This document shows positions 21,927 to 57,307 of a DNA stretch of 57,314 bases, piece after piece; position 1 is the stretch's first letter, and each line of letters begins with the position of its first letter. The stretch lies in assembly GCA_035655515.1 (NCBI GenBank), contig DASRUI010000016.1, positions 1-57,314 of the forward strand. Direction: 5' to 3'. The notes under the pieces are model-generated. The model searched no databases, was not told the origin of the DNA, and was given only the letters and a program-made list of their open reading frames with translations. Origin of the DNA: Thermodesulfobacteriota bacterium. GTDB lineage: Bacteria; Desulfobacterota; GWC2-55-46; DRQE01. Position numbers and translations under genes: made by a program.

Positions 21927-23948
21927 TCAAACAAGCAGAGGCGCGATTATTAAAGCCACTATGCTCATGAGTTTTATGAGTATGTTCATTGCAGGGCCCG
22001 TGGTGTCCTTGAACGGGTCTCCTACCGTGTCTCCGACGACAGCGGCCTTATGGGCGTCCGAGCCTTTACCGCCGCCTTCGCCTTTTTCTATGGCCTTCTT
22101 GGCGTTATCCCAAGCCCCGCCGGCATTAGCCATGAAGAGCGCCAAGAGCACCCCTGTTACGGTCGCGCCGGCTAACATGCCTCCCAAGGCGGCCGGGCCG
22201 AAGGCGAAGCCTATTATGACGGGACTTACCACAGCTACGACTCCCGGAAGTATCATCTCCCGAAGCGCGGCCGTCGTGCTTATGTCAATGCACTTGGCGA
22301 CGTCCGGCTTGACGCCCTTTTTACCTTCGAGAAGGCCGGGAATTTCCCTGAACTGGCGCCTTATCTCGTTAACCATCTTATGCGCCGCCTTGCCGACGCT
22401 CGTCATGGTAAGGGCGCCGATAAAGAAAGGCAATATGCCGCCTATGAAAAGACCTACTACCACGTACGGATCCGTAAGGAGCATGATGAAAGGCTCGCCG
22501 AGATTAACTTCTATGGCCTGTCCGAAAGCGGCAAAAAGAGCCAAGGCGGTCAACGCGGCCGAGCCTATGGCAAAACCCTTGCCAATGGCGGCCGTGGTGT
22601 TGCCGAGGGCGTCGAGAGAGTCGGTTATCGAACGGACGTCTTTGCCGAGTCCGCTCATCTCGGATATGCCTCCGGCGTTATCGGCTATCGGGCCGTAAGC
22701 GTCAACGCTCATTATTATGCCTGTGGTGGCCAACATACCCACGGCGGCAATGCCTATGCCGTAGATACCTGCGAAGTGGTTTGATACGAGTATGGCCGCG
22801 GCTATGGCAAGCACCGGCAGGGCGCAGGATTCAAGCCCTACCGCTAATCCTGTTATTATGTTCGTCGCGGGGCCTGTCTGGCTCGCCTCGGTTATTCTCT
22901 TTATCGGGCTTGCCGAGGTGTAGTGCTCGGTTATGAGCCCTATGGCTATTCCCGCGACACAGCCCGCGAAGACCGCCCAGTAGATGCCGTCGTTCACGTC
23001 TATGATATCAACCACGAAATATCCGCCTATGAGAAAAAGGCCCGCCGCTATGAATGTGGCGTAGCGCAAGGCCGCGGCCGGGCTTCTGGATTCGAGAAAC
23101 TGCATGGCCCCGATGCCCAATACGCTCGCCACAAGCCCGGCCATGGTAAGCACGATGGGAAGAGCCATAAGGGCGGATGATGTTCCGAGGTTGGCCACTT
23201 CGCTTCCCGCAAGGGCGGTGGCGCCTATGGCTATGGTGGCGACTATCGCGCCTACGTAGGATTCGAATATATCAGCTCCGAGGCCTGCCACGTCTCCGAC
23301 GTTGTCTCCGACGTTATCGGCTATGACGCCGGGGTTACGCGGGTCGTCTTCGGGTATTCCCGCCTCGATTTTGCCGGCGAGATCGCTTCCCACGTCCGCC
23401 GCCTTGGTAAATATGCCGCCTCCGACCCTCGCGAAAAGGGCTATGCTCGACGCTCCCATTGCGTAACCGCTAATTATCGCCGCCTCGGACGGATCTCCGA
23501 AAATTATAAAAAGGACTCCGACGCCCAAAAGTCCCAAACTCGCGACCGAAAGACCCATTACGCTTCCGCCCAAAAACGCGGTCGAAAGGGCCTTGGCCGC
23601 GTTAGGCTTAAAGAGGTTCGCGGCCTGAGCCGTCCTTACGTTCGCCTTTGTGGCGCCCTTCATGCCGAAAAACCCGGCTAACATGGAAGACACCGCGCCG
23701 CCTATGTACGCGATAGCGGTGTATTTGTCTATGAATATCGCAAGAAGCGCAACGGCTATTATTATGAAAACTACGAGTATCGTATATTGCCTCTTGAGAT
23801 ACACCATCGCGCCGTCGTGTATGAGGGCGGCTATATCGCGCATCTTCTCGTTGCCGTCCGGTCTTTTTTTGATGGAAAGATAAATAAAGAGAGCGAGAAC
23901 CAAGCCGCCTATTGCGAGAAGCGGAGAGAATTTAACCAAACCTTCCAT
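21927..23948 (-). CDS. hppA: Membrane-integral pyrophosphatase (ion-translocating PPase)
   Basis: [47 protein letters not shown] and [18 protein letters not shown] motifs. 673 aa, polytopic. Confidence 0.95.
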
Positions 23949-26462: not shown

Positions 26463-26537
26463 TGGTTGGGGCGGGAGGATTCGAACCTCCGGATGCGGGG
26501 ATCAAAACCCCGTGCCTTACCGCTTGGCGACGCCCCA
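26463..26537 (-). tRNA. tRNA-Gln (UUG)
   Basis: The reverse complement folds as a cloverleaf: acceptor TGGGGCG/CGCCCCA, anticodon stem CGGGG/CCCCG with loop TTTTGAT, T-arm GGAGGTTCGAATCCTCC, and an encoded CCA. The U1:A72 pair is typical of tRNA-Gln. Confidence 0.9.
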
Positions 26538-27428: not shown

Positions 27429-29273
27429 TTAAGAAAGGAGAAAGAAGAGATTCAGGAGCACAAGAAGCCCTACGAAGACGGATACCGCGTAATCGTGCAC
27501 GAGCCCCGTCTGTATGCGGCGCAAAACCACCGACAACCCTGTCATGAGTTCAGCGGCGGCGTTCACGAGCCCGTCAACGACCTCGACGTCGAACTTGAAC
27601 GACATGCCGCAGAGCCGGTCGCTGAGTCTCAAAGCGAGAGTCTTGGCGGCGCTTACGAACCCGTCAACAATCTCTACGTCGAACTTGAACGACATGCCTG
27701 AGAGCCAATTGCCGAACTTCAAGACAAGGGTCTTGTAAGAGTTGCCGACCGCGTTGTCAACCGGCGCAATGACGTTTGTGTCCCACCACATGAAAATTAG
27801 CGCGCCCTTTCTGTAAAACCAGTCCGTGTCGAGGCTTACCACCGGCTTGGTGCCGAGTTTCTTTATGTACAGATAGAAACCGAGCCACGTAAAGAGCAGT
27901 ATCTCGAATGTCCACACGAGATGTTCCGCCGTGTAAGAGGCGTAATGAATCGGATAGGGGAGCATATCGTATAAAAACTTCGGATACAGCCCGATGAATA
28001 CGCACATAAAAGCGGCCATAGCCATGCCAATCAGCATATTCAACGGCGGGTCCTCGGTCTTGATTTTCTTGTCCTCGGCCATGAAGGCGAGATAAGGGAG
28101 TTTCAGGCCTACGGAAAGGAAAGTTCCTGAGGAAGCGAGCGTCAGAAACAACCACGCATAACTAAGATGCTCTTCGGCCGCCGCGCTCACGATTACGGAT
28201 TTGCTCACGAAGCCGCTGAAAAACGGCACGCTCGATATGGCAAATGCCCCGACCATGTAAAGGATAAACGTATAAGGCATGGTCTTGTATAGCCCGCCAA
28301 GTTCGGAGAGTTTTCTCTTTCCCGTCATATAGATGATGCTTCCCGCGCCCATAAAGAGAAGCCCCTTATAGAGTATATGGGCAAAGGCGTGGGCAACGGC
28401 CCCGTTTATCGCCATCTGAGTGCCGATGCCGACCGCAGCCACCATGTAGCCGACCTGGCTTATGATGTGATAGGAAAGCAGCCTTCTTATGTCGTTTTCC
28501 AGAACCGCATAAACAACGCCGTAAACCGCCATGATGACGCCGAGCACTATAAGAATGTCCGTCCCGGCGAAACCCCTCGCAAGGGCATATACCGCGCTCT
28601 TTGTCGTGAACGCCGACATGAAGACGGCGCCGCTTATCGTCGCCTCGGGATAGGCGTCCGGAAGCCATGCCCCGAGCGGAGGCACGGCGGCGTTAATGAT
28701 GAAAGCAATGAGTATGAGCGCGGCGCCGGGCCCCGCAAGTTCCATGGGGTTGAAGGCGAAGCTCTGAGTCTGCGCGTAATACATTACAGCCCCTCCTATG
28801 AGGCATACCCCGCCGAAGATATGCACCAATATATATCTGAACGCCGCCCCGTAAGCCGCGTCAGTCCTCCGGTAAAGTATCAGGAATACCGAAGAAAACG
28901 CCATGAACTCCCAGAATAAGACGAGCGTAAGAAAATCCCCTGCGAGCGCGACCCCGATGGCGCTCCCGGCGTAAACAAAACCGGCTATATGATGGCCGTC
29001 TTCTTTGAGATTCAGCCCGTAGCACATCGAAATAAAAGCCGTAAGCGAAAATATGTATGAAAACACGAGCGAGAGTTTGTCGACCCTGCCGAATATCAGT
29101 TCCTGCCCCATGATGTGATACGCCCCGTAGACACCCTCGCTCATGTTCAGAACGCTTAAAAACGCGAGCGCGGGCAATAAAAGCAGATACGCCTGCTTTA
29201 CCCTGCCTTTAAAAAACGGGATCAAAATGGAGCCTGCTATCAATACCGCCCCCGGGTGAACCCAATCAATCAT
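27429..29273 (-). CDS. Antiporter-like complex I/Mrp-family subunit bearing a NuoL/MrpA-type C-terminal lateral-helix arm (likely annotated NuoL or Na+/H+ antiporter subunit D)
   Basis: 614 aa. PF00361-type core (WEFMAFSSVFLI, GAWLPDAYPEATISGAVFMSAFTTKSAVYALAR). The ~135-aa C-terminal extension ends FDVEVVDGLVNAAAELMTGLSVVLRRIQTGLVHDYAVSVFVGLLVLL. The (I/V)DGxVN...QTG...Y + terminal TM pattern is the helix-HL/TM16 signature of NuoL. The start overlaps the upstream small ORF by 8 nt. Confidence 0.8.
   Translation of the reverse strand: MIDWVHPGAVLIAGSILIPFFKGRVKQAYLLLLPALAFLSVLNMSEGVYGAYHIMGQELIFGRVDKLSLVFSYIFSLTAFISMCYGLNLKEDGHHIAGFVYAGSAIGVALAGDFLTLVLFWEFMAFSSVFLILYRRTDAAYGAAFRYILVHIFGGVCLIGGAVMYYAQTQSFAFNPMELAGPGAALILIAFIINAAVPPLGAWLPDAYPEATISGAVFMSAFTTKSAVYALARGFAGTDILIVLGVIMAVYGVVYAVLENDIRRLLSYHIISQVGYMVAAVGIGTQMAINGAVAHAFAHILYKGLLFMGAGSIIYMTGKRKLSELGGLYKTMPYTFILYMVGAFAISSVPFFSGFVSKSVIVSAAAEEHLSYAWLFLTLASSGTFLSVGLKLPYLAFMAEDKKIKTEDPPLNMLIGMAMAAFMCVFIGLYPKFLYDMLPYPIHYASYTAEHLVWTFEILLFTWLGFYLYIKKLGTKPVVSLDTDWFYRKGALIFMWWDTNVIAPVDNAVGNSYKTLVLKFGNWLSGMSFKFDVEIVDGFVSAAKTLALRLSDRLCGMSFKFDVEVVDGLVNAAAELMTGLSVVLRRIQTGLVHDYAVSVFVGLLVLLNLFFLLS
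27555..27706. repeat. In-frame tandem direct repeat, period exactly 90 bp, inside the arm-coding region
   Basis: 27555-27616 (ggcggcgttcacgagcccgtcaacgacctcgacgtcgaacttgaacgacatgccgcagagcc) versus 27645-27706 (ggcggcgcttacgaacccgtcaacaatctctacgtcgaacttgaacgacatgcctgagagcc), with about 7 mismatches in 62. It encodes GMSFKFDVE(I/V)VDG(F/L)V(S/N)AA twice. Confidence 0.9.
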
Positions 29274-29508
29274 AATAGTCCTCGCTTTTCTGCAACCATA
29301 TTTTCCCTATAAATTTTGACACCACTATAATTGCAACGCACGAAATAAAGCCGTATGCGGCGCTGAAGCCCGGGATTTCGTCCCACGGGAATATCGCGTG
29401 ATGCTTCGGTATTATGAAATCACCGATTACCAAAAGCCCCATGGCAACGTAGACAACGGTCTTGAAAACCTTCTTGCCATGACCTTCGAGTATCTTTTCG
29501 AGTATCAT
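29266..29508 (-). CDS. 80-aa two-TM membrane protein, translationally coupled on both sides
   Basis: ATG 29508 overlaps the upstream stop (ATGA), and its 3' end overlaps the next start by 8 nt. Translation: MILEKILEGHGKKVFKTVVYVAMGLLVIGDFIIPKHHAIFPWDEIPGFSAAYGFISCVAIIVVSKFIGKIWLQKSEDYYD. No family recognised. Confidence 0.6.
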   Translation of the reverse strand: MILEKILEGHGKKVFKTVVYVAMGLLVIGDFIIPKHHAIFPWDEIPGFSAAYGFISCVAIIVVSKFIGKIWLQKSEDYYD

Positions 29509-30974
29509 TTTATCCTCTCTATGATGGACAGGAAAAAGTCGGGCCATACGCCTACTATGACCGTTATTACGGCGGTTATCATTATCGGCGCTATCACGAA
29601 AGGAGGCGCCTCCTTGACGTTACGCACGTGACTGTCTTCCGACGGTTCTTTGAAATACGCCCTGAAGATAATGGGGAGAAAGTAGGCCGCGTTAAGAACC
29701 GTGCTCGTAAGAAGCACCACAAGCGCCGTTCCGTTTCCGGCCTCGAGCGCGCCCTTCACGAGATACCACTTGCTCGTGAACCCGGCGACCGCCGGAACGC
29801 CTATCATGGAAAGAGCGCCTATGGTAAAGGCCGCCATGGTGTAAGGCATCTTTTTCGCTATGCCGTCCATCTGGCTTATCTTCTTTATGTGGGAGGCGAC
29901 GAATATGCTTCCGGCGCAGAAAAAGAGCGTTACCTTGGAAAACGCGTGATTCCCTATGTGAAGTATGCCTCCCAGAACGCCGCTCGGAGTAAGGAGCGCC
30001 ACTCCTAATATCACGTAAGAGAGCTGGCTTATGGTCGAGTAGGCGAGCCTCGCCTTAAGGTCGTCTTTCGTGAGGGCTATGACCGAGGCGGTTATTACCG
30101 TAAAAGACGCGAAGAGCGCGGTCGGAAGTCCGAGCCCGAAGTAACTCATGACGTCCAGCCCGAACACGAAGAGCATTATCCTCACCACCGAAAACACCCC
30201 TACCTTAACGACAGCGACCGCGTGCAAGAGAGCGCTGACGGGCGTGGGCGCGACCATGGCGGAAGGAAGCCAATTATGGAACGGCATCATGCCGGCCTTG
30301 GCTAAACCTATGAGGAAGAATATGTAGGTAAGGGTGACCAGTAGCCTCGGCATCTCGGTCGTGAATATGCCGCCCGGCTGAAAATCGAGGGTCCCGGTTA
30401 TCATGTAGGTCATGATTATCGCGGCAAGCAAAAACACCTTCGCGAGACCTACGAGATAGACGACGTACTTTTTGCCGCCCTCCCACGCGTCCTTGTCCTC
30501 GTGGTGCGCGACGAGCGGATAGGTCATTACGCTCAACAACTCGTAAAAGAGATACAGGGTAAAGAGATTCGCGGCGAACGCGACGCCTATGGCCGAAGAA
30601 AGGGCTATGGCGAAACAGGAAAAAAACCTCGTCTGGGAGTGCTCGTTAAGGGACCTCATGTAGCCTATGGAATAGGCCGTGGCTATAATCCAGAGGAAAG
30701 AGGCGCTCAAAGCGAAGAATATGCCCAAGGGGTCCACCCTGAACTTCAACTCTATCCCGGGTAAAACGGTAAATACCGTGTACTCGACGACCGCGCCGGA
30801 AAGTATCAACGGGAGCATGGATACTATCAACGCGAATTTTACCAAGGCCGCGGCAAAACTCCAGCCCTCTCTCAGGTTCGGGTATTTTCCGGACGCCACA
30901 ATCAAGGCGACCGATATGCCCGACACTAAAACGGCTAAAAGAGGCTTTATCGAAACTATGGTTTGAAATTCCAT
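29505..30974 (-). CDS. Antiporter-like subunit with a NuoL/MrpA-type core but no lateral-helix arm (likely annotated Na+/H+ antiporter subunit D / NADH dehydrogenase subunit)
   Basis: 489 aa. VDPLGIFFAL...YSIGYMRS...RFFSCFAIAL...LFYELLSVMTYPLV resembles the NuoL N-terminal region. HNWLPSAMVAPTPVSALLHAVAVVKVGVF resembles the NuoL/MrpA PTPVSAL(I/L)HA motif. The protein ends right after the 14-TM core. Confidence 0.75.
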   Translation of the reverse strand: MEFQTIVSIKPLLAVLVSGISVALIVASGKYPNLREGWSFAAALVKFALIVSMLPLILSGAVVEYTVFTVLPGIELKFRVDPLGIFFALSASFLWIIATAYSIGYMRSLNEHSQTRFFSCFAIALSSAIGVAFAANLFTLYLFYELLSVMTYPLVAHHEDKDAWEGGKKYVVYLVGLAKVFLLAAIIMTYMITGTLDFQPGGIFTTEMPRLLVTLTYIFFLIGLAKAGMMPFHNWLPSAMVAPTPVSALLHAVAVVKVGVFSVVRIMLFVFGLDVMSYFGLGLPTALFASFTVITASVIALTKDDLKARLAYSTISQLSYVILGVALLTPSGVLGGILHIGNHAFSKVTLFFCAGSIFVASHIKKISQMDGIAKKMPYTMAAFTIGALSMIGVPAVAGFTSKWYLVKGALEAGNGTALVVLLTSTVLNAAYFLPIIFRAYFKEPSEDSHVRNVKEAPPFVIAPIMITAVITVIVGVWPDFFLSIIERIK

Positions 30975-31040
30975 GCGCCCACCCTTATTCCGAGATTACC
31001 TCAAAGACCCGCTCAATGACAGTCATTGCGCGGAGATTTT

Positions 31041-31104
31041 GTAACTCAGCCCTCCGCCTGAGGCGGAAGGGCTGACGTGTATCAGGGCTAAAGCCCTGAG
31101 TTAC
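31041..31104. repeat. Nested-hairpin element, variant outer stem GTAACTCAG/CTGAGTTAC (copy 3)
   Basis: gtaactcagccctccgcctgaggcggaagggctgacgtgtatcagggctaaagccctgagttac, in the gap after nuoN. Confidence 0.65.
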
Positions 31105-31119
31105 GTAAACAAGAATACC

Positions 31120-32592
31120 TTAAAGTCCGAACGCCTTGCTTGAGGCCATACGGACGAATTCTATGACGTGGTTCGGATACACTCCCAAAGCCAATACCAT
31201 AACCATCGAGACAGCCAGGGCGTAAGACACTCCCTTGCTCGGGGCCGTCTCGTGAACGAAGGCCGGCTCTTTCATGTACATGAGCATGATTACCCTTATG
31301 TAAAAATACGCCGCTATCGCGCTCATGACCACCGCTGCCACGGCGAGACCTATCATGCCTTTATGGATTAGGGCCATGAAGACGTAGAACTTGCCCATGA
31401 ACCCGGCGGTAGGCGGAATGCCGGCCAGGGAAAACATGAATATCATCATGAGGAACGCCAGAAGCGGATGGGTCTTCGAGAGCCCCGCGTAATCCTCGAT
31501 TGTTTCCCCCTGCCTGCCTTCTTTTCTCAGGATAATCACTATCGCGAACGCGCCGAGGGTCATGAACACGTAAACGAGGGAATAGAACATGACGCTTCCG
31601 GCGCCCTCGCCGGTTCCCGCAAGCACGCCCAAAAGCGCGTAGCCGGCGTGGCCTATGCTCGAATAGGCGAGCATCCTTTTAATGTTCGACTGCGCTATCG
31701 CGGTTATGTTTCCGTAGAACATGCTCGCGACGCTCACGACCGCGATAAGCACGAACCACTTATCGTAGGCCGGGCCGAGCCCTTCCATGAAAACCCTTAT
31801 CATGGCGGAAAACGCGGCGGCCTTGCTCGCGACCGATATGAAACCCGTAATCGGCGTCGGCGCTCCCTCGTATGCGTCCGGCGCCCACATGTGAAACGGC
31901 ACTCCGGCCACCTTGAAGGCGAAACCGCACGCCAGCAAAACCAGCGCTATGCTGAGCGAGGGGTTCTTTAAAACCTCGGGCGTAAGGGCGGAGGCGACGG
32001 CGTGGAGTTCGGTGGTTCCCGTAAGCCCGTAGATGAAGGAAATCCCGTAAAGCAGTATCCCCGAAGAGAACGCGCCGAGTATCACGTATTTCATCGCGCC
32101 CTCGCTCGAGCGCGAATCGTTATGAGCGAAGCCGGCGAGAACGTAAACCGGTATGCTCATGAGCTCCAGACCTATGTATATGGAAAGGAGATCCGCCCCC
32201 GACGCCATGACCATCATGCCGCTTAACGAAAAAAGCATGAGGACGTAGTATTCGCCGGAGTTCGCGTCGTCGTCTTTCATGTACCGGAAAGAAATAAGTA
32301 TCGTAAGGACGGCCGCGAAGTAAAAAACGAACTTAAAGAACGTCGAGTAGTCGTCCGCGACGAACATCCCTGAAAAGAACGTGCCGCCGGAAATATCGGA
32401 CGCGAAAATGCAGGCCGAGCCGACGGCCGCGGCGACTACCAGCAAAAACGCGAGAGTAGCCGTAACAATCCGCCTCTTTTCGCCCAAGAGGAGGTCGAGC
32501 AAAAGAAGCACGCTCGCCCCTCCCGCCACCGCAATCTCCGGGCTTATCGCGAGTACGTCTTTTATGCCTATTACGCCGACGCCTGTCATCAT
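31120..32592 (-). CDS. nuoN: NADH-quinone oxidoreductase subunit N
   Basis: 490 aa. LLSIYIGLELMSIPVYVLAGF, PFHMWAPDAYEGAPTPITGFISVASKAAAF and MLAYSSIGHAGY motifs, in the position after nuoM. Confidence 0.9.
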   Translation of the reverse strand: MMTGVGVIGIKDVLAISPEIAVAGGASVLLLLDLLLGEKRRIVTATLAFLLVVAAAVGSACIFASDISGGTFFSGMFVADDYSTFFKFVFYFAAVLTILISFRYMKDDDANSGEYYVLMLFSLSGMMVMASGADLLSIYIGLELMSIPVYVLAGFAHNDSRSSEGAMKYVILGAFSSGILLYGISFIYGLTGTTELHAVASALTPEVLKNPSLSIALVLLACGFAFKVAGVPFHMWAPDAYEGAPTPITGFISVASKAAAFSAMIRVFMEGLGPAYDKWFVLIAVVSVASMFYGNITAIAQSNIKRMLAYSSIGHAGYALLGVLAGTGEGAGSVMFYSLVYVFMTLGAFAIVIILRKEGRQGETIEDYAGLSKTHPLLAFLMMIFMFSLAGIPPTAGFMGKFYVFMALIHKGMIGLAVAAVVMSAIAAYFYIRVIMLMYMKEPAFVHETAPSKGVSYALAVSMVMVLALGVYPNHVIEFVRMASSKAFGL

Positions 32593-32598
32593 GTCTCC

Positions 32599-34137
32599 TT
32601 AAAAACCCGCCACGGGCGCGCCCGTTACCTGCGCCAGCAAGTTGGCGACCGATACGTGCATCACGTTGAGAAAACTCATGGGCCTAAAACCAACCCAGAA
32701 TACGAACACCAGAAACGCGACGAGAGCCGCGGCCTCCCTCAGGTTTATGTCGCGGACATCGCCGTGGCCGTGCGTCTCCCCATGGCCGGATTCATCGCCA
32801 TGCTCCGCGTGCGATTGCCCGAAACTTACCCTCTGATACATGGAAAGCATGTAAGCCGCGCCGAGCGCTATGCCCGCGAAAAGGAAGAACAAATAAAACT
32901 TATAGCTCGCGTACGCACCCGCGAGTATCAGAAATTCTCCGATAAATCCGTTAGTGCCCGGAAATCCCAGAGACGCCAGAGAGAATATCAACAAAAACAC
33001 CGCGTAAATCGGGATGCGCCTTGCCGCCCATCCGTAGTCTTTGAGGTTTCTCGTGTGCGTCCTCTCGTATATCAACCCGACGCAGAGGAACAGCGCCCCT
33101 GTCGTTATGCCGTGGTTGAACATCTGAAGCATGCCGCCCTCGACCCCGTTCTTGTTAAGAAGAAATAACCCCATGGTGATGAAGCCCATGTGGCTTATGC
33201 TCGAATAGGCGATGAGTTTTTTCATGTCCTCCTGCGAAAGAGCGAGGAACGCCCCGTATATTATGGCTATTATGGAAAGGATTGCAACGGGGGTTGTGAA
33301 ATAAATGCTCGCGTCGGGGAACATGGGGAACAAAAACCTCAGGAATCCGTACGCGCCCATCTTCAGAAGCACTCCGGCGAGCATGATGCTTCCGGCGGTC
33401 GGAGCCTCGACGTGCGCGTCGGGCAGCCAAGTGTGGAACGGAAACATGGGAACCTTTATGGCGAAGGCGATGAAGAGCAAAATAAACACGAACGCCTGAA
33501 AGCCGAAGGCGTATTGCTTTGTCATGAGAAGCGGTATGTCGAACGTCCCTCCGGAGGTGAAATAAAGGGCTACGATGCCGACAAGCATGAATTTGCCTCC
33601 GACCCATGTGTAAAGGAAGAACTTGATCGCCGCGTATATCCTCCTCGGGCCGCCCCAAATCCCGATTATGAGACACATCGGTATGAGCATGGCCTCCCAG
33701 AATATGTAGAAGAGGAAGAAGTCGAGCGAGGCAAAAACCCCCATCATGGCCGCCTGCATCAAGAGGAGCATTATCATGAACTGTCTTACGCGCTTCTCTA
33801 TCGACGTCCACGAGGCCAAAACGCATATCCACCCGATGAGGCCGGTAAGGAACATGAATATCACGCTTATACCGTCCACTCCGAGGTAGTACTCGATATT
33901 AAGGCTCGGTATCCACTCGCCTCTTTCAACGAACTGCATTGCGGCGGTTCCCCTGTCGAAGCGCAAGAGAAGAGGTATGGTAAGGATAAAGTCCGCCACC
34001 ATAGCAACGAGCGTTATCCAGCGCGAGGCCGAAGCATTTTTCACGAAAAGAAGCGCGACCACGGCAAGAAGCGGCAGGAATATTATGACGCTCAAGATAT
34101 GGTCTTGAATCATAGGCAGATCGAGAAGAAACTCCAT
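32599..34137 (-). CDS. nuoM: NADH-quinone oxidoreductase subunit M, downstream tandem copy (His-rich loop variant)
   Basis: 512 aa. FYIFWEAMLIPM, PFHTWLPDAHVEAPTAGSIMLAGVLLKMGAYGFLRF and LIAYSSISHMGF motifs. About 9 in 10 residues are identical to the upstream copy by eye. Confidence 0.92.
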   Translation of the reverse strand: MEFLLDLPMIQDHILSVIIFLPLLAVVALLFVKNASASRWITLVAMVADFILTIPLLLRFDRGTAAMQFVERGEWIPSLNIEYYLGVDGISVIFMFLTGLIGWICVLASWTSIEKRVRQFMIMLLLMQAAMMGVFASLDFFLFYIFWEAMLIPMCLIIGIWGGPRRIYAAIKFFLYTWVGGKFMLVGIVALYFTSGGTFDIPLLMTKQYAFGFQAFVFILLFIAFAIKVPMFPFHTWLPDAHVEAPTAGSIMLAGVLLKMGAYGFLRFLFPMFPDASIYFTTPVAILSIIAIIYGAFLALSQEDMKKLIAYSSISHMGFITMGLFLLNKNGVEGGMLQMFNHGITTGALFLCVGLIYERTHTRNLKDYGWAARRIPIYAVFLLIFSLASLGFPGTNGFIGEFLILAGAYASYKFYLFFLFAGIALGAAYMLSMYQRVSFGQSHAEHGDESGHGETHGHGDVRDINLREAAALVAFLVFVFWVGFRPMSFLNVMHVSVANLLAQVTGAPVAGF

Positions 34138-34177
34138 GCCTTAAATCCCCCTGACCTCTTTGTGAAAGATAGTAACC

Positions 34178-35704
34178 TTAAAAGCCCGCCACGGGCGCGC
34201 CCGTTACCTGCTCCAGAAGATTGGCGACCGATACGCGCATCACGTCAAGAAAACTTGCGGGCCACAAACCAACCCAGAATACGAACACCGTAAACGCGAC
34301 GAGAGCCGCGGCTTCCCTCAGGTTTATGTCGCAGACGCAGCCCCGCCCCGCGCCGTCGCCGGGCTCCGCTTGAGCCGTGTCGAAGCTGAAGCATACCCTC
34401 TGATACATGGAAAGCATGTAAGCCGTGCCGAGCGCTATGCCCGCAAGAAGGAATAACAAATAAAACTTATAGCTCGCGTACGCGCCTACGAATATCAGGA
34501 ATTCTCCGATAAATCCGTTAGTGCCCGGGAATCCCAGAGACGCCAGAGAGAAGATAAAGAGAAATCCCGCGTAAGCAGGCATGAGCCTTCCCACCCATCC
34601 GTAGTCTTTGAGATTTCTCGTGTGCGTCCTCTCGTATATCAACCCGACGCAGAGGAACAGCGCCCCTGTCGTTATGCCGTGGTTGAACATCTGAAGTATG
34701 CCGCCCTCGACCCCGTTCTTGTTGAAAAGAAATAACCCCAAGGTGATGAAGCCCATGTGGCTCACGCTCGAATAGGCGATGAGTTTTTTCATGTCCTCCT
34801 GCGAAAGAGCGAGGAACGCCCCGTATATTATGGCTATTATGGAAAGGATTATGACGGGGGTGGCGAAATAAATGCTCGCGTCGGGGAACATGGGGAGCGA
34901 AAACCTCAGAAATCCGTACGCGCCCATCTTCAGAAGCACTCCGGCGAGTATGATGCTTCCGGCGGTCGGAGCCTCAACGTGCGCGTCCGGCAACCAAGTG
35001 TGGAACGGAAACATGGGAACCTTTATGGCGAAGGCGATGAAGAACAAAATAAACACGAACGCCTGAAAGCCGAAGGCGTATTGCTTTGTCATGAGAAGCG
35101 GTATGTCGAACGTCCCTCCGGAGGCGAAATAGAGGGCGATGATGCCGACGAGCATGAGTATGCTTCCGGCAAGCGTGTAGAGGAAGAACTTAATCGCCGC
35201 GTAAACCCTCCTCGGCCCGCCCCAAACCCCGATTATGAGATACATCGGTATGAGCATGGCCTCCCAGAATATGTAGAAGAGGAAGAAGTCGAGCGAGGCG
35301 AAAACCCCCATCATGGCGGCCTGTATAACGAGGAGCGTTATCATGAACTCTTTTACGCGCTTATCAACTGACGTCCACGAGGCCAAAACGCATATCCACC
35401 CGATGAGGCCGGTAAGGAACATGAAGAGAACGCTTATACCGTCTATTCCGAGGTAGTACTCGATATTAAGGCTCGGTATCCATTCGCCTCTTTCGACGAA
35501 CTGCATTGCGGCGGTTCCCTTGTCGAAACGCAAGAGAAGGGGTATGGTAAGGATAAAGTCCGCGACAAGCGCCGCGAGCGTTATCCAGCGCGAGGCCGAG
35601 TCGTTTCTCACGAAAAGAAGCAGGGCGACGGCCAGAAGCGGCAGGAATATTATGACGCTCAGGATATGGCCTTTAATAATAGGCAAATCGAGAAGAAACT
35701 CCAT
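34178..35704 (-). CDS. nuoM: NADH-quinone oxidoreductase subunit M, upstream tandem copy
   Basis: True start is ATG 35704 (MEFLLDLPIIKGH...), 2 nt after the nuoK stop. The 605-aa track ORF is an out-of-frame read-through across nuoK. It has the same NuoM motifs as the other copy. Confidence 0.92.
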   Translation of the reverse strand: MEFLLDLPIIKGHILSVIIFLPLLAVALLLFVRNDSASRWITLAALVADFILTIPLLLRFDKGTAAMQFVERGEWIPSLNIEYYLGIDGISVLFMFLTGLIGWICVLASWTSVDKRVKEFMITLLVIQAAMMGVFASLDFFLFYIFWEAMLIPMYLIIGVWGGPRRVYAAIKFFLYTLAGSILMLVGIIALYFASGGTFDIPLLMTKQYAFGFQAFVFILFFIAFAIKVPMFPFHTWLPDAHVEAPTAGSIILAGVLLKMGAYGFLRFSLPMFPDASIYFATPVIILSIIAIIYGAFLALSQEDMKKLIAYSSVSHMGFITLGLFLFNKNGVEGGILQMFNHGITTGALFLCVGLIYERTHTRNLKDYGWVGRLMPAYAGFLFIFSLASLGFPGTNGFIGEFLIFVGAYASYKFYLLFLLAGIALGTAYMLSMYQRVCFSFDTAQAEPGDGAGRGCVCDINLREAAALVAFTVFVFWVGLWPASFLDVMRVSVANLLEQVTGAPVAGF

Positions 35705-35706
35705 GC

Positions 35707-36009
35707 TTACCCTTTCAAAGAATCCATTTCGTCGGCATTGAAGACGTTGCGTTGCCTCATGAGCGCTATCAATATGCCCAGGGCAACGGCGACCTCGGCC
35801 GCGGCTACGGTTATGGTGAAAACCGCGAACATCTGCCCCCTCATGTCGCCGAGATAGTACGAAAACGCCACGAGGTTTATGTTCACCGAGTTGAGCATCA
35901 GCTCGACGCTCATGAGCATTATTATTATATTCTTCCTGAGCAGCACCCCGGACGCCCCTATGACAAAAAGCGCGAGCCCGAGCGCCATATACCACGTAAC
36001 TGGAATCAT
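35707..36009 (-). CDS. nuoK: NADH-quinone oxidoreductase subunit K
   Basis: 100 aa, 3 [28 protein letters not shown]...[11 protein letters not shown]. Confidence 0.93.
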
Positions 36010-36609: not shown

Positions 36610-37197
36610 CTACTTCGCCTTTAACCACCAATCGGGCTTTTGTTCTTCAAAATACGGCACTATGACCGGCACGCCTTTAATCTTATCCCTGCCGAGCCGC
36701 GCCTTCACGATGACGCCTCCCTTGAAATACTCCGGGGTGCGCTGAGGCACGAGCAGTTCTTCCTTCGTGAAAAACGTGCAACTTTTGTCGGAGCAGGCAA
36801 GCTCGAAGTCCCTGCCGAGCCGGACGGCCGTCGTCGGGCAGGCGTCCTCGCAGTATCCGCAGAAAAGGCACCTTACGAGGTTTACCGTCCAGACCGCCGC
36901 TACCCTGTCGGATATGCCTCTTCCGTTCTTGTCCTCGACCGGCACCACCGTTATGCAGTTGGTCGGGCAGGCCTTGACGCAAAGTTCGCACGCGACACAG
37001 AGTTCCTTGCCTCTCTCGTCCCTGTTCAACGTGTGCCTGCCTCTAAACCTCCTGTACGGCACCCACTTCTCCTCGTCCGGATAGCGAAGCGTTACGCTCC
37101 TCGACACGTTATGCCGGAAGGTAGTGGAAAGCCCCTTCAGAAAATCCAAGAAGAATATCCTCTTTATCAAATCCGCTATGCCGAAAGGTTTTTTCAT
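36610..37197 (-). CDS. nuoI: NADH-quinone oxidoreductase subunit I
   Basis: ATG 37197 overlaps the nuoH stop (ATGA). Two 4Fe-4S motifs, CVACELCVKACP and CLFCGYCEDACP. A ~35-aa C-terminal extension is present. Confidence 0.93.
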   Translation of the reverse strand: MKKPFGIADLIKRIFFLDFLKGLSTTFRHNVSRSVTLRYPDEEKWVPYRRFRGRHTLNRDERGKELCVACELCVKACPTNCITVVPVEDKNGRGISDRVAAVWTVNLVRCLFCGYCEDACPTTAVRLGRDFELACSDKSCTFFTKEELLVPQRTPEYFKGGVIVKARLGRDKIKGVPVIVPYFEEQKPDWWLKAK

Positions 37198-38231
37198 GGC
37201 ACCCATATCTTTAAGAATCCGGTAACGAGAATGTTCGCCATCGAGACCGGTATCAATATCTTCCACCCTATGTTCATGAGCTGGTCATAGCGGTAGCGCG
37301 GTATGGTAAACCTTATCCACATGAAAAAGTAGATTAACACCGCCACCTTGCCCATGAGCCAGAATATCCCCGGCAAAATCCCCGTGCCGAACGGGTCGTC
37401 CCAGCCGCCGAGGAAAAGAATGGTCGTAAGCGCCGCGATGGAGGTCATGGCGATGTACTCGGCCATGGCGAAGAACGAAAACCTCATGCCGCTGTATTCG
37501 GTGTGGAACCCCGCCCCGAGAGTGCCCTCGTCCTCGGGAAGGTCGAACGGAATCCTGTTCATCTCGGCCATCCCGGCTATCACGAATATCACGAACCAAA
37601 CAGGCCCGACCGGAAGGTAAAACACGTTCCAATGGAATACCCCTCCGTATTGGCTCCTTACGATGTCCAATAGGGAGAGGGAGCCTGATATCATCACGAC
37701 CCCTATCACCGCGAACGTGAGGGACACCTCGTAACTGATCATCTGGGCCGCGGAACGAAGCCCTCCGAGAAGGGCGTACTTGCTGTTCGATGCCCACCCT
37801 CCTAACATCAATCCGTAAACCGAAAGGCCGGAAACCGCGAGCACGTATAAAATCCCCATGTTCATGTCTGAGATGTAGAGGGTTATCTCTTTATCCACGT
37901 AGGGAAGATTAACGGATTCCCCGAACGGCATCGCGACGAATATCAAGAACATCGGCACAAGCGCTATGAGGGGCGCGATCTTAAAAAGAAACTTATCGGC
38001 CTTTTCCGGAACGATGTCCTCCTTGAGGAGCATCTTTATTCCGTCGGCGACGGGCTGGAGTATGCCGTGCGGGCCGACCCTGAAGGGCCCGAGCCTCGAC
38101 TGTATGTGCCCTGCCACCTTCCTCTCTATCCACGTAAGAGGTATGGGAAGGTTAAAGAGCACTCCGGCCACTATCATCACCTTTACGATGATTATGACGA
38201 CCTCTGTCAATACCGCCGTATCCATTGTCAT
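37194..38231 (-). CDS. nuoH: NADH-quinone oxidoreductase subunit H
   Basis: IERKVAGHIQSRLGPFRVGPHGILQPVADGIKMLLKED...EGTLGAGFHTEYSGMRF. Confidence 0.95.
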   Translation of the reverse strand: MTMDTAVLTEVVIIIVKVMIVAGVLFNLPIPLTWIERKVAGHIQSRLGPFRVGPHGILQPVADGIKMLLKEDIVPEKADKFLFKIAPLIALVPMFLIFVAMPFGESVNLPYVDKEITLYISDMNMGILYVLAVSGLSVYGLMLGGWASNSKYALLGGLRSAAQMISYEVSLTFAVIGVVMISGSLSLLDIVRSQYGGVFHWNVFYLPVGPVWFVIFVIAGMAEMNRIPFDLPEDEGTLGAGFHTEYSGMRFSFFAMAEYIAMTSIAALTTILFLGGWDDPFGTGILPGIFWLMGKVAVLIYFFMWIRFTIPRYRYDQLMNIGWKILIPVSMANILVTGFLKIWVP

Positions 38232-38238
38232 GCCTGTC

Positions 38239-38709
38239 TTATCTCTTTCTTCCCCACATGTAGTTTATCATCTCCATGTAGCGCGTGTTCATGCCGCGCA
38301 CTATGGAATGCACGGTAAAAACGACGTTCCGCATGAGCTTATACACTATCCACGGGTGGGTTTCCACCACCCTCTCGAAGTCTTTCCTCTCAAGAACCAA
38401 AACCTCTATGTCGGAGACCGCGACGACGGTGGCGGAACGCGGCCTTCCGTCGAGAAAACTCATCTCTCCGAATATCTCCCCCTCTTTCATGAGGGTCAAC
38501 GTGAATAGTTCCCCGTCGGGAGAGACCTTGCAGGCCTTTACCTCGCCTTTTTTAAGCACGTAAAGCGATTCTCCGTCCTCGCTCTCTGAAAATATAGTCT
38601 CGCCGCGCTTGTACTCTTTCTTTCCGAGCATCTTCGCGACCACCTCGCGCTCTTTATCGTTAAGCTCGGTGAAGAAAGGGATGTTCCCGAGTATTTTCGG
38701 ATCTACCAT
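38239..38709 (-). CDS. Stand-alone cyclic-nucleotide-binding (CAP-family cNMP) domain protein, no HTH
   Basis: 156 aa. FFTELNDKEREVVAKML, ESLYVLKKGEV, and the phosphate-binding cassette FGEMSFLDGRPRSATVVA. A short helical tail follows and there is no DNA-binding domain. AAGGAGG RBS. It starts 34 nt after nuoG and ends 7 nt before nuoH. Confidence 0.85.
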   Translation of the reverse strand: MVDPKILGNIPFFTELNDKEREVVAKMLGKKEYKRGETIFSESEDGESLYVLKKGEVKACKVSPDGELFTLTLMKEGEIFGEMSFLDGRPRSATVVAVSDIEVLVLERKDFERVVETHPWIVYKLMRNVVFTVHSIVRGMNTRYMEMINYMWGRKR

Positions 38710-38743: not shown

Positions 38744-41239
38744 TCATTCCTTGAAACCCGCTATGTTGACGACCGGTATAGGTTCGCCTTTTCTGAAAAA
38801 TCTGTTCACCGGAGCGTCATTGAAATTCTCCGGTATGAAACAAACGTCTTTCATGGAATTCGCCTTGACCCGCAACGCGAACTTGGCGCTGAATCCGTTT
38901 CCGCTCACAATGACCTTGTCTCCGTCCGAAAGGCCGGCCTCGTCGGCCCTGAGTTTGCTTATCTCGACAACAGGCTCCTTAAGAAGCCCGCTGAGTATGG
39001 ACGACCTGCTTGAAAGTCTGCCTGAATAATAAAGGTGATTTCCCGTAACGAGAATATAAGAGTTGACCTTGTCGGTCTTGAACGGAACGCCCGGCTCCGG
39101 TTTATCCCCCGCGCCGGAAAGCCTTTTATCCGAAGCCTTTACCATGACGCCCTTGGCGCCGCCCGCCGATATCTCCGCTCCGGCGTAAGACGAGACTTGT
39201 TTTTTTATCTCCTCGAAAACCGAAGCGCTCGAACCGACGGTCATCGAAGCCGCGGCATCGAGAAGAGAGGCTATTATGTCGAAATCCGTCTTAACATCGC
39301 CCGGGGGCTTGACAAGCGGATAAACCGCCTGAATACGTCCTTCCTGATTCGTCACGGTGCCGCTTCTTTCGACGAACACGGCCGAAGGCAATATAAGATG
39401 CGCCAACTTCGCGGTCTCCGTCATGAAACTCGCCTGCACCGCCAAAAACTTGACCTTTGAAAGGGCGCCCCCGGCAAAGGCCTCGTCCGGGTACATCGCC
39501 GCTATGTCCTCTCCGACGACGTACATAGCGTCCATCTCTCCCGATGCCGCTTTCTCCAACATCTCCCCGCACGACATCCCCCGCGACACGGCTTCGTAGC
39601 CGGGGCCGAAAACCGGACTTACTCCCATGTCCCAGGCGCCCCTCTGGTTAGACCTGTCGAGAAGCGGCAATACCCTGATTTTCTTGCCCATCGCCTTGAG
39701 TGAAGCGATAAGAAGCCCTAACGCGAAAGAGCCTTCCTTATATCTTAGAAAGTCCGTGCCGGCCATGATGCTTATCGTCTCGGCTCTTTTGAAACGCTCT
39801 ATAAGGGCGTTTACGTCCGGGGCTTCGGCGCCGCATGTCTGCAAGAGTTCTTCGATCGAAGCGGCATTTATTGCCTCCATGCCCTTTACGGCGCTCAACT
39901 TGGCGGAATTGTCCTTATTAAGCAAAGAGACCGCCGCGAGGAGAAGGCTTCCGACACGTCCCGGAAGATGCCTTATCCTCAAATGCGCCGAGGAATCCAG
40001 CTTCATGGAGCGCGGAGACGCTATGACCACGGCCTTCCTCGCGCTCGCCGAAACATACCTTACTATGTAATCGGTAACCGGATTTTCATCCGATATCTGG
40101 GAGCCGACTATGAAAGTCATGTCCGAGTCCATGCACTCGTAAACGGCGGAAGGGCCTTCGGCCATGCCCGTGGCCGATATGAACGAGGCGACGGCCGAGG
40201 CGTCCCACCTTGAAGAAGAATCCACGTTAGGCGTCTTTACGACTTGCCTCATAAGCTTCTGAAAAAGGTAGAGTTCCTCGTTCGTAAGACGCGCCGAGGC
40301 GACGCCTCCGACCTTTTCCGGGGCCGGCCTCATGAGGGCTTCCTTAAGAACCTCTATCGCCCTCGCCCACGATATCGGCTCGAACCTGACGCCGACCTTC
40401 AAAAGAGGCGTTGTGAGCCTGTCGGCGTTGTTGCTTATGTCGTAACCGAACCTGCCTCTCGCGCAAAGCATGTTCGCGTTGAATCCGTTGGAATTGCGCG
40501 CTATGGAGCGCACCACCTCTCCGTTACGGGACTCGACGGTTATCCTGCAACCGGTCGCGCAATAAGGGCAGACCGTGGCGGAACTTTTCAAATCCCACGG
40601 CCTTGCCTTGTACCTGTAAGGCCGCCTCATAAAGCACCCTACAGGGCAAACCTCTATGCACATGCCGCAGTGGTCGCAGTCGAGTTCGGTCTTCCAAAAG
40701 CTCGTCTCCTCCTGATGCGCGCCCCTGCCCATGACACCCAGAACTCCCCTTCCGACAATCTCCCTGCAGACCCGGACGCACCTCGTGCACTGGACGCAGC
40801 GGTTGGAGTTCTTCACTATGACCGGACTTAAAACGTAATCTTCCTCGTGGAAGCGTATCTTGACCTCGTCGAATCTTCCGTTCCTCGGCCCGTGCTTGTA
40901 AACCATGTCCTGCAACTCGCACTCGCCGGCCTTGTCGCAGACCGGGCAATCGAGGGCGTGGTTCGAAAGGAGAAACTCAAGCATCGCCGCTCTCATAGAC
41001 GAAATCGAGCTTGACTCGGTAAGTATGCTCACGCCGGGTATTACCGGGGTTATGCACGCGGGTTGGAGCTTTTTCTGCCCCTCTATCTCTATAAGACACA
41101 TCCTGCAGCTTCCGAGTCCGGATATCCGAGCCTGATAGCAGAAGGTCGGGATGTCGAATCCGGCTTCTTTGGCCGCGTCCAGAATAAGCGTGCCGTCATT
41201 CACGGTTATCTCTTTATTGTTTATCTTTAAAGTTATCAT
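38744..41239 (-). CDS. nuoG: NADH-quinone oxidoreductase subunit G
   Basis: 831 aa. An N-terminal 2Fe-2S ferredoxin-like part (CYQARISGLGSCRMCLIE), HALDCPVCDKAGEC, 4Fe-4S motifs, then a molybdopterin-oxidoreductase-like domain. Confidence 0.93.
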   Translation of the reverse strand: MITLKINNKEITVNDGTLILDAAKEAGFDIPTFCYQARISGLGSCRMCLIEIEGQKKLQPACITPVIPGVSILTESSSISSMRAAMLEFLLSNHALDCPVCDKAGECELQDMVYKHGPRNGRFDEVKIRFHEEDYVLSPVIVKNSNRCVQCTRCVRVCREIVGRGVLGVMGRGAHQEETSFWKTELDCDHCGMCIEVCPVGCFMRRPYRYKARPWDLKSSATVCPYCATGCRITVESRNGEVVRSIARNSNGFNANMLCARGRFGYDISNNADRLTTPLLKVGVRFEPISWARAIEVLKEALMRPAPEKVGGVASARLTNEELYLFQKLMRQVVKTPNVDSSSRWDASAVASFISATGMAEGPSAVYECMDSDMTFIVGSQISDENPVTDYIVRYVSASARKAVVIASPRSMKLDSSAHLRIRHLPGRVGSLLLAAVSLLNKDNSAKLSAVKGMEAINAASIEELLQTCGAEAPDVNALIERFKRAETISIMAGTDFLRYKEGSFALGLLIASLKAMGKKIRVLPLLDRSNQRGAWDMGVSPVFGPGYEAVSRGMSCGEMLEKAASGEMDAMYVVGEDIAAMYPDEAFAGGALSKVKFLAVQASFMTETAKLAHLILPSAVFVERSGTVTNQEGRIQAVYPLVKPPGDVKTDFDIIASLLDAAASMTVGSSASVFEEIKKQVSSYAGAEISAGGAKGVMVKASDKRLSGAGDKPEPGVPFKTDKVNSYILVTGNHLYYSGRLSSRSSILSGLLKEPVVEISKLRADEAGLSDGDKVIVSGNGFSAKFALRVKANSMKDVCFIPENFNDAPVNRFFRKGEPIPVVNIAGFKE

Positions 41240-45630: not shown

Positions 45631-45999
45631 TCATTTTATCCAATCCAGCGCGCCCTTGCCCCACGCGTAAACAAGCCCCGCGGCGAGGATGCCTATAAAA
45701 ACGAACATCTCCGCGAATACGAGAACCGATATGGCTTTATCGGTGATTATGACTGCCCATGGGAAAAGAAAGAGGGTTTCGACGTCGAATACTATGAAGA
45801 GGATGGCTATGACGAAGAAGTGAATCCTGAAGTGCCCGGTGGAGGCGTCTCTGATCGGCTCCATGCCGCACTCCCATGGGGAGAGCTTGTTGGCGTAGGG
45901 ATTCCTCGGGCTCAGCACGCGGTTAACGAATAAAACCGCGTACACGACAAAGATAATGTAGCCAGCCATTATAAGGACCGGTAGATAAGTCGAAAGCAC
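45631..45999 (-). CDS. nuoA: NADH-quinone oxidoreductase subunit A
   Basis: SPWECGMEP...[13 protein letters not shown] motif. GTG 45999 is preferred because AGGAG lies 6 nt upstream and the predicted -10 box sits at 46044-46049, which excludes ATG 46041. Confidence 0.88.
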
Positions 46000-46043
46000 G
46001 AGACGCTCCTGCGGTTTATTCTGTCCGGCTACATATAGCAAGG

Positions 46044-46072
46044 AAAATAAAACAACTCAGGCCGTTTGTCAA
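46044..46072 (-). promoter_or_regulatory. Sigma-70-type promoter candidate for the nuo operon
   Basis: Minus strand: TTGACA (46072-46067), 17 nt, TATTTT (46049-46044). Confidence 0.45.
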
Positions 46073-46157
46073 GGATAAAGTATACTGTATACAATGCGGA
46101 TAACGCGAAAATCGCATTGCCGGACGAAATAAATTCAATTCGAGAGACAGTCCCCTG

Positions 46158-56332: not shown

Positions 56333-56601
56333 ATTGATTCCTCCGACTCTTTCTCTTTCAAAAGCTCGATCGCCTCTAAACATTTTTTTATATAAGGCCG
56401 TTTAACTTTATTTTCTCTACCATGCGGAATTGGAACATGTGGCAAACTCTCAGTTTTAAGTTTCTCATTCTTGAAAAAATAACCGTCAGATGCCCTTTCT
56501 GGCATGAACCCATAATATTTCATTAGTCTTAATAAAATATCAATCGTTACATTGTTCGGTCCATTCTCGACTTTTAATAGCAACTTTTCTTTTTTTGACA
56601 T
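56329..56601 (-). CDS. hicA: HicA-like toxin (YcfA/HicA family, divergent)
   Basis: 90 aa, placed directly upstream of hicB. LLRLMKYYGFMPERASDGYFFKNE...HVPIPHGRENKVKRPYIKKCLEAI resembles the HicA GF..R..G..F....vP.H....k.g....il pattern but lacks the usual GSH. Confidence 0.5.
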   Translation of the reverse strand: MSKKEKLLLKVENGPNNVTIDILLRLMKYYGFMPERASDGYFFKNEKLKTESLPHVPIPHGRENKVKRPYIKKCLEAIELLKEKESEESI

Positions 56602-57231: not shown

Positions 57232-57307
57232 TGGTGCCCGGAGACGGAATCGAACCGCCGACACGAGGATTTTCAGTCCTCTGCTCTACCGGCTGAGCTA
57301 TCCGGGC
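57232..57307 (-). tRNA. tRNA-Phe (GAA)
   Basis: The reverse complement is GCCCGGATAGCTCAGCCGGTAGAGCAGAGGACTGAAAATCCTCGTGTCGGCGGTTCGATTCCGTCTCCGGGCACCA. It folds as a canonical cloverleaf with anticodon loop CTGAAAA and an encoded CCA. Confidence 0.93.

Follow-up and report, generated by a model that had tools for sequence, protein, structure and literature searches.

In the nuo operon of a Thermodesulfobacteriota bacterium, the gene for a small stand-alone cyclic-nucleotide-binding (CNB) protein is embedded between nuoG and nuoH, and in a total of 95 loci that carry the C-terminal tail motif of this protein the gene lies at the same nuoG–nuoH junction wherever flanking sequence exists. Such a recurrent insertion is far beyond chance. 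The protein consists of a CRP-like β-barrel followed by one long helix, the distal part of which is the best-conserved segment of the whole polypeptide. We tentatively favour a role for the CNB protein as an accessory or regulatory partner of complex I, gated by a ligand and docked onto the enzyme via its C-terminal helix.

The window, namely the whole stretch of 57,314 nucleotides analysed here, carries the CNB gene on the minus strand at positions 38239 to 38709 including the stop codon, with the ATG start at 38709 and the stop at 38241–38239. The assignment is based on the ORF list, the translation, a match to the Pfam family PF00027 (E = 7e-27) and homologues. An earlier note made from the letters alone had placed a 156-residue ORF at these coordinates, 34 nt past the end of nuoG and 7 nt short of nuoH on their strand; the coordinates, the length, both gaps and the shared strand are right, but the actual strand is the minus strand. 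The upstream neighbour, nuoG (831 residues; 38744–41239, minus strand), scores 479.8 bits against TIGR01973, above the cutoff, with Pfam domains in agreement, and it ends 34 nt upstream of the CNB gene. The downstream neighbour, nuoH (345 residues; 37194–38231, minus strand), starts 7 nt past the CNB stop codon and matches PF00146 with an E-value of 1e-118 and NF004741 above its cutoff. The CNB gene also has its own Shine–Dalgarno sequence, AAGGAGG, as the note had claimed, which is read from the minus strand at 38722–38716, 6 nt 5′ of the ATG codon.

The GC3 of the CNB gene is 0.694, the same as that of its neighbours. Sites resembling promoters or terminators are not commoner between 36.5 and 41.5 kb than in shuffled sequence, so that a separate transcription unit for the CNB gene is unsupported. 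A chance ORF or an annotation artefact is ruled out by 390 homologues of constant length, a universal ATG start and a family-wide conservation pattern. Likewise, a recent horizontal insertion is ruled out, because the GC3 matches that of the neighbours and because the gene is also present in two operons (L092 and L093) whose NuoG is just 33–35% identical to that of the window. The DNA sequencing runs that contain the CNB sequence are metagenomes of soil, sediment and groundwater, and no RNA runs containing it were found.

The whole operon, nuoA-B-C-D-E-F-G-[CNB]-H-I-J-K-M-M-N-MrpD-MrpD2, extends from 45999 to 27429 on the minus strand according to Pfam and NCBIfam assignments. When the sampled loci were mapped with tblastn, the CNB gene was the sole non-Nuo gene seen as an insertion in the operon. 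The nuoG–nuoH junction had been taken as the boundary between peripheral-arm and membrane-arm genes; this division is not a clean one, since NuoA is a membrane subunit and NuoI is a peripheral one. Pfam or NCBIfam scans of 46 window ORFs, which cover the window except for a few ORFs at 10–13 kb, revealed no cyclase gene. An Rfam search of the window returned two tRNAs only, with no riboswitch near the operon.

The position of the CNB gene is strictly conserved. A search of 5.8 billion proteins yielded 390 homologues of 155–168 residues; the 120 among the matches listed are 156–168 residues long and bear generic names only. In a scan of one genome per species, 417 stretches encode a relative of the CNB protein, the best 80 of which, species-representative and 56–97% identical to the window protein, were taken as the orthologue set. 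In this set nuoG lies immediately upstream in 76 of the 76 loci with enough upstream flank, and nuoH lies immediately downstream on the same strand in 77 of the 77 with enough downstream flank. The order nuoG–CNB–nuoH is constant across at least three different orders of the downstream antiporter-like genes. The median gaps are 70 nt between nuoG and the CNB gene and 61 nt between the CNB gene and nuoH, and some gene pairs overlap by 4–25 nt. All 80 orthologues start with ATG, and a GGAGG-like Shine–Dalgarno sequence precedes most of the 79 genes with available flank.

A metagenome control scan was seeded with the most divergent family members. It gave 15 loci with the tail motif (44–73% identity), all 15 of which are at the nuoG–nuoH junction; the two operons with distant NuoG mentioned above are among them. 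In contrast, a nuo gene was found within 8 kb in none of 65 loci of other CNB proteins, which are mostly CRP/FNR regulators with a helix-turn-helix (HTH), together with HD-GYP and GGDEF-type fusions. The tail motif is thus present in 15/15 nuo-embedded metagenome loci and in 0/65 loci of other CNB proteins. The loci were sampled through the CNB protein itself, and hence the complex I operons among them were found via the gene. Within this sampling, the neighbourhood survey that the note had proposed shows that the insertion recurs in every related locus with enough flank.

The rate of divergence was compared among the proteins of the operon as the median identity to the window proteins in the 45 loci with full coverage. 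NuoF (75.0%), NuoD (69.5%) and NuoH (67.6%) rank above the CNB protein (66.0%), which is followed by NuoB (65.6%), NuoI (59.8%), NuoE (59.6%), NuoC (53.5%), NuoG (52.3%) and NuoJ (46.6%). Because its median identity is comparable to those of NuoH and NuoB, the CNB protein evolves like a core subunit. Lying within the nuo operon and on its strand, in the window as in the 95 loci, the gene is also placed as that of a complex I subunit. However, PF00027 is its sole family match, and no homology to NDUFS4, NDUFS6, NDUFA12, NDUFA9 or Nqo15/frataxin was found.

The cNMP-binding β-barrel comprises residues 31–118 (38356–38619, minus strand), as defined by the Pfam match, the AlphaFold2 (AF2) model and a Foldseek search. 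The match to PF00027 (cNMP_binding, CAP_ED) reaches 93.6 bits against a cutoff of 27.5 (E = 7.4e-27) and covers profile positions 2–89 of 89. This is the single Pfam domain of the protein. The NCBIfam equivalog models of CRP, NtcA, FixK and similar proteins match over the N-terminal sensor part only, with scores far below their cutoffs, and neither Pfam nor NCBIfam detects an HTH. The Pfam check thus bears out the earlier description of a CAP-family barrel without an HTH. The AF2 model, built with 48 family sequences (mean pLDDT 89, pTM 0.82), consists of the CNB barrel and then an uninterrupted helix of residues 119–155, with which the model ends; its confidence falls to 65–76 over the last 20 residues. 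The Foldseek search produced 641 matches in the PDB at E ≤ 0.001, with CNB domains at the top; together with the model, they agree with the CNB fold of an eight-stranded β-barrel, an N-helix, a cassette helix and a hinge/C-helix. An acidic barrel (pI 4.9) is joined to a basic C-terminal helix (pI 11).

The phosphate-binding cassette, F80-GEMSFLDGRPRSATVV-A97 (38419–38472, minus strand), contains E82, R89 and R91 and aligns with the cassettes of PKA and PKG. Both the cassette quoted in the note (FGEMSFLDGRPRSATVVA) and the quoted end of the tail (…MEMINYMWGRKR) are found in the translation exactly as given there. In the window protein the cassette is canonical (G81-E82 … R91-S92-A93). Across the 80 orthologues, F80, G81, M83, F85, D87 and R89 are invariant and E82 is present in 79, so that the start of the cassette, F80-G-E-M-S-F-L-D87 plus R89, is near-frozen. 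Position 91, the equivalent of the arginine in the PRAAT motif of PKA, is Arg in 57 of the 80 and His in the other 23 (29%), with at least five independent switches between the two on a neighbour-joining tree. In a divergent relative (P0193), Leu replaces the cassette Glu, yet the same operon position is kept. The cassette had been called intact, which is true of the window protein but not of the family. These replacements, R91H in 23 of the 80 orthologues and the loss of Glu in P0193, make a cyclic nucleotide insecure as the ligand across the family. A cyclic nucleotide may be the ligand of most members, and cyclic-nucleotide binding may not be the property that the family conserves.

The single long C-terminal helix spans residues 119–156 (38242–38355, minus strand). 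It is predicted by AF2, for the monomer, over residues 119–155, and residues 122–140 show a heptad-like hydrophobic pattern. The note had described a short helical tail. The tail is indeed predicted to be helical, but it is a 37-residue helix rather than a short one, and it includes the most conserved part of the protein. This part is the signature tail, H134-S-IVRGMNxRYxEMxNYMWGRxR156 (38242–38310, minus strand), which was defined in the 80-orthologue alignment. Of its 23 positions, 18 show little or no variation (H134, I136-V-R-G-M-N141, R143-Y144, E146-M147, N149-Y-M-W-G-R154 and R156), and they are spread over all faces of the helix. The tail is basic (pI about 11), and its hydrophobic moment is low (0.2–0.4). 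A membrane-surface amphipathic anchor is therefore unlikely; with invariance on every face and a low hydrophobic moment, a buried protein interface suits the tail better. We infer that two copies of the protein come together through the proximal part of the helix, as in CRP, and that the distal segment is buried in a partner on all sides.

An exhaustive profile search resolved the full-length family into about four clusters at 50% identity, its results being dominated by proteins with multiple CNB domains. Two divergent members keep the position: one of 44% identity (P0166) lies between the C-terminus of NuoG and nuoH, and P0193 (42% identity) lies between an 831-residue NuoG-like gene and nuoH. 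A further relative (P0186) is a 339-residue tandem CNB protein with a tail-like motif after each domain and degenerate cassettes. Its locus (L084) reads sigma-54 activator, nuoA, nuoH, the tandem CNB gene, nuoJ, nuoK and five antiporter-like genes, and the cluster is without nuoB, nuoC, nuoD and nuoI. This is a second architecture in which a tail-bearing CNB protein adjoins nuoH. Modelled as a possible covalent pseudo-dimer, the tandem protein reaches a pLDDT of 68, with its tails below 50. The proteins closest to it are P0272 and P0271, the latter from the same genome, and both are encoded away from nuo genes. The tail-like motifs of these two proteins outside nuo clusters imply that the helix motif as such is older than its association with nuo. 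As a second nuo-linked family, the relatives of the tandem protein qualify partly only, two of the three contexts examined being unrelated to nuo. One singleton on a 1-kb contig (P0266) has a NuoE-like gene downstream instead of nuoH.

Upstream of nuoA, a putative nuo promoter is located at 46072–46044 on the minus strand, with a –35 box TTGACA at 46072–46067, a spacer of 17 nt and a –10 box TATTTT at 46049–46044. It carries the conserved element CTTGACAA, which is present upstream of nuoA in 47 of 50 loci, compared with at most 7 in shuffled sequences, and which is followed across the loci by a 17-nt spacer and a TATCTT-like –10 box. The position of the promoter indicates that nuoA starts at the GTG codon at 45999 rather than at the TTG codon at 46041. 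Just 6 nt upstream of the –35 box is a 15-bp palindrome, TGTATACAGTATACT (46093–46079, minus strand), which has one mismatch to the consensus TGTATAC-N-GTATACA and occurs only once in the 57-kb window. With up to two mismatches, the palindrome is present in 31 of 48 loci, in 26 of which it lies 8–9 nt from the –35 box. The 1.74 Mb of fetched loci contain 33 near-exact copies, and all of them are 104–275 nt upstream of a nuoA match. This confinement suggests a nuo-specific putative operator of some factor. The palindrome may be linked to the CNB protein, or it may be the site of an unrelated factor.

A partnership with complex I is favoured because of the strict synteny, the subunit-like constraint, the conservation of the tail, the coincidence of tail and nuo context, the expression signals, the second architecture and the fold. 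The CNB protein would be a lineage-specific small-molecule sensor dedicated to complex I and made from the nuo mRNA beside the subunits. Its acidic CRP-like barrel, with a cassette of the ribose-phosphate type (G81, E82, R89, R91/H91 and S/T92), would sense a nucleotide-type ligand, and the proximal heptad part of the helix would pair two copies in the manner of the C-helix of CRP. The IVRGMNxRYxEMxNYMWGRxR segment would be buried in a conserved surface of the partner, most plausibly on the cytoplasmic side near NuoH. In PKA, Epac, CRP and HCN/MloK1, a ligand at the CNB cassette in general moves the hinge and the C-helix. In the same way, occupancy by cAMP, cGMP or a related nucleotide would shift the hinge and the C-helix of the CNB protein and alter the engagement of the tail with the complex, and the altered engagement would adjust the activity, the direction or the assembly of complex I. 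Four elements of this scheme are inferred, namely that two copies pair, which ligand is bound, that the protein contacts complex I and that catalysis is affected. Counted against such a partner are His at position 91 in 29% of the orthologues, the loss of Glu in P0193, the failure to find a cyclase among the scanned window ORFs, the tail-like motifs in tandem paralogues outside nuo, the position of P0266 beside a NuoE-like gene and the nuo-specific promoter palindrome. In a stronger form, which is possible but rather doubtful, complex I of this lineage would have a built-in second-messenger receptor, a dimeric cNMP subunit near NuoH that gates the activity or the direction of the enzyme. The gated enzyme would be one with four or five antiporter-like pump modules.

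From the gene position alone, the CNB protein could be a subunit, an assembly factor or a regulator. The main rival to a complex I partner is an autoregulator without an HTH, in which the basic C-terminal helices of a CRP-like dimer would grip the palindrome by the –35 box and a ligand would switch the whole operon, the CNB gene included. The note had dismissed a transcriptional role for want of an HTH. The HTH is absent, but the nuo-specific palindrome at the operon promoter keeps a regulator under consideration. The palindrome is indeed specific (31/48 loci, with 33/33 copies in 1.74 Mb upstream of nuoA), and yet it is missing from about 15 of the 48 loci, where the tail is still invariant. 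The closest structures are CRP-family transcription factors, the match to which includes their dimerisation helix, whereas a known DNA-binding domain was not found in the CNB protein. The strongly basic tail (pI about 11), with its many Arg, Asn, Tyr and Trp residues and its invariance on all faces, would suit DNA. The tblastn maps, in which the operon of the sampled loci shows no second non-Nuo insertion, also speak for an autoregulator. However, the location of the gene in the middle of the operon, mostly with a GGAGG-like Shine–Dalgarno sequence, implies subunit-like amounts of the protein, which are unusual for a factor with a single operator, and the locus of the tail-bearing tandem protein (L084) has no palindrome and has a sigma-54 activator upstream. 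We therefore consider an autoregulator unlikely.

If it acted in assembly or maturation, the CNB protein would attach for a short time to a module still being built, for example when the NuoG arm joins the NuoH anchor or when a cofactor is inserted, with the barrel as a checkpoint sensor or a scaffold, and it would be absent from the mature enzyme. The strict nuoG–nuoH synteny and the apparent co-expression with the operon agree with such a role as well, but conservation equal to that of core subunits argues against it. A cassette that tolerates the change from Arg to His and even the loss of Glu, while the tail is fixed, fits a role in protein–protein contacts, whereas the near-invariance of F80–D87 and R89 points to a ligand site that has been kept. 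Some of the extra reading frames in the nuo/nqo operons of Paracoccus and Rhodobacter are not subunits, which would give this role a parallel, but Pfam and NCBIfam revealed no relationship to known complex I assembly factors. An assembly factor ranks below the autoregulator and is likewise unlikely. The least probable of these alternatives, and a quite improbable one, is a soluble protein that buffers cyclic nucleotides or serves as a signalling adaptor, shares no more than its expression with complex I, acts on a target outside the complex and would couple respiratory gene expression to cNMP signalling. It leaves unexplained both the constancy of the junction in 95 loci across three membrane-arm gene orders and the coincidence of tail and nuo context (15/15 versus 0/65), although stand-alone CNB proteins with no assigned function are common (for example, 3mdp, 3gyd and 2pqq) and tandem paralogues with tail-like motifs occur outside nuo clusters.

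The barrel and the long C-helix of the CNB protein are shared with CRP/FNR factors such as CRP of M. tuberculosis (3h3u and 4a2u) and GlxR of C. glutamicum (4cyd). These two are the top Foldseek matches, with an E-value of about 3e-14 and a TM-score of 0.71–0.76 over about 145 residues including the C-helix, and CRP has the same R-S-A type of cassette. However, the CNB protein is without the winged HTH of these factors and ends after the helix at residue 156, and the 23-residue C-terminal motif belongs to the CNB-tail family only, not to the CRP/FNR proteins of the control loci. Three proteins from structural genomics, Gmet_1532 (3mdp), Mfla_1926 (3gyd) and 2pqq, have the same one-domain architecture and size (TM-score 0.75–0.80) but just 23–30% identity. 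The best PDB matches by sequence are the regulatory CNB domains of PKA and PKG (E-values of 1e-41 to 1e-20), whose cassette, FGE[LM]..L....PR[AS]AT, aligns residue for residue. The tandem domains of PKA and PKG inhibit a kinase through an inhibitor segment, whereas the CNB protein has a single domain and a different effector segment. HCN and CNG channels and MloK1 offer a functional analogy only, in that a movement of the C-helix drives a membrane machine (1u12 is among the fold matches). In those channels the CNB domain is fused to the channel, whereas the CNB protein is a polypeptide of its own, for which any coupling is hypothetical.

Subunits beyond the core set, confined to particular lineages, are known from bacterial complex I (PMC8115037; bioRxiv 10.1101/2025.03.13.643058). 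Nqo15 of T. thermophilus, PdNUYM, PdNUMM and PdN7BM of P. denitrificans and an A9-like protein of M. smegmatis are precedents for such subunits; unlike the CNB protein, none of them is a cNMP-binding domain. To our knowledge, none of them binds a second messenger. As far as is known, most of them are encoded outside the operon. Work in the 1990s described extra reading frames among the nqo/nuo genes of Paracoccus denitrificans and Rhodobacter capsulatus, one of which is located between nqo3 (nuoG) and nqo8 (nuoH). As far as we know, these frames belong to other protein families, are not known sensors and are conserved in alphaproteobacteria only. The note had stated that a CNB gene is not a described feature of nuo operons. 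Consistently, a full-text literature search combining CNB terms with nuoG, nuoH, nuo and complex I found no relevant mention of such a gene, and a recent HMM-based census of complex I in prokaryotes, accessory subunits included, does not mention one either (bioRxiv 10.1101/2025.03.13.643058). Neither the CNB domain nor its occurrence in stand-alone proteins is new, and bacterial complex I was already known to have extra subunits. What appears to be new, at the level of sequence, is a distinct CNB subfamily that has a signature tail and is embedded in nuo operons.

The lineage comprises bacteria of groundwater, soil and sediment that are labelled Deltaproteobacteria, Thermodesulfobacteriota or Nitrospirae, with at least 417 species-level genomes encoding a relative of the CNB protein. 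As far as is known, bacterial complex I is controlled mainly via transcription, and we know of no action of cAMP on mitochondrial complex I other than an indirect one via kinases. Versions of complex I with extra pump modules have been proposed to run in reverse (PMC9040806), and the organisms studied here have versions with extra pump modules. The family provides a concrete and cheap target, an 18-kDa soluble protein that is suitable for ligand screening, pull-downs and multimer modelling. Whether it acts on the enzyme or on the promoter, the gene merits a family name of its own and a more informative annotation than 'cyclic nucleotide-binding domain-containing protein'. A CRP-like autoregulator that contacts DNA with no HTH would be a novelty as well. 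If the CNB protein is a partner of complex I, it would place a direct post-translational control point at the main entry of the respiratory chain, and if complex I of this lineage has a built-in second-messenger receptor, it would be without known precedent among respiratory complexes in its direct binding of a nucleotide second messenger.

The nuo operon is preceded by a highly conserved putative promoter, and directly 5' of it lies the 15-bp palindrome TGTATAC-N-GTATACA (window 46079-46093, minus strand), which adjoins the -35 box at 46067-46072. The palindrome is found at 31 of the 48 orthologous loci, and all near-exact copies in the 1.74 Mb of fetched DNA (33/33) are located upstream of nuoA. 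Mechanical ORF calling places the nuoA start at TTG 46041 (45997-46041), upstream of the predicted transcription start. The motif AGGAG at 46010-46006 precedes GTG 45999, and this GTG is more likely than the TTG to be the nuoA start codon, which would give a product of 123 aa.

At the 5' end, the 605-aa 'nuoM' ORF (34178-35995) reaches too far. The initial ~96 codons cover part of the real nuoK (100 aa; 36009-35707), which is read in a different frame, and the match to the NuoM profile starts only at residue 112.

Canonical nuoL is absent from the membrane-arm genes in 27429-35700 (minus strand). The membrane arm encodes five antiporter-like subunits, namely two NuoM, one NuoN and two MrpD-like proteins. 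The first MrpD-like gene occupies 30974-29505 and the second 29273-27429, both on the minus strand, and the 614-aa product of the latter has a NuoL-like C-terminus. Related loci carry four antiporter-like genes each, in two different orders. With its five antiporter-like subunits, the membrane arm resembles 'Complex_I_3' of Ca. Manganitrophaceae, which has been termed unique (PMC9040806).

A nuo-like cluster consisting of the membrane arm only (L084 6426-17020; GCA_024277675.1) is preceded by a sigma-54 activator gene and contains nuoA, nuoH, a tandem CNB gene, nuoJ, nuoK and five antiporter-like genes; none of nuoB, C, D and I is present in this cluster. P0266, a divergent singleton CNB protein encoded on a 1-kb contig (L083 159-1081), bears the tail IIRNMNKKYIDMVDYMWRWR, and the gene downstream of it encodes a NuoE-like 2Fe-2S protein rather than NuoH.

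Two tRNA genes are found on the minus strand (26466-26537 and 57235-57307), one of them between prs and the GHMP-kinase (ispE-like) gene that comes after the nuo operon. ORFs for an HNH endonuclease (9235-10179) and a HicB-like antitoxin (55709-56383) may belong to mobile or toxin-antitoxin elements that have no connection with the CNB gene within the nuo operon.

A membrane H+-pyrophosphatase (673 aa; 21927-23948) is encoded ~3.5 kb downstream of the nuo operon, with ispE, a tRNA gene, prs, the L25 gene and pth in between, and a NirB-like NAD(P)H nitrite/sulfite reductase (792 aa; 52419-54797) is encoded upstream of the operon. Both enzymes provide context for the energy metabolism of this organism.
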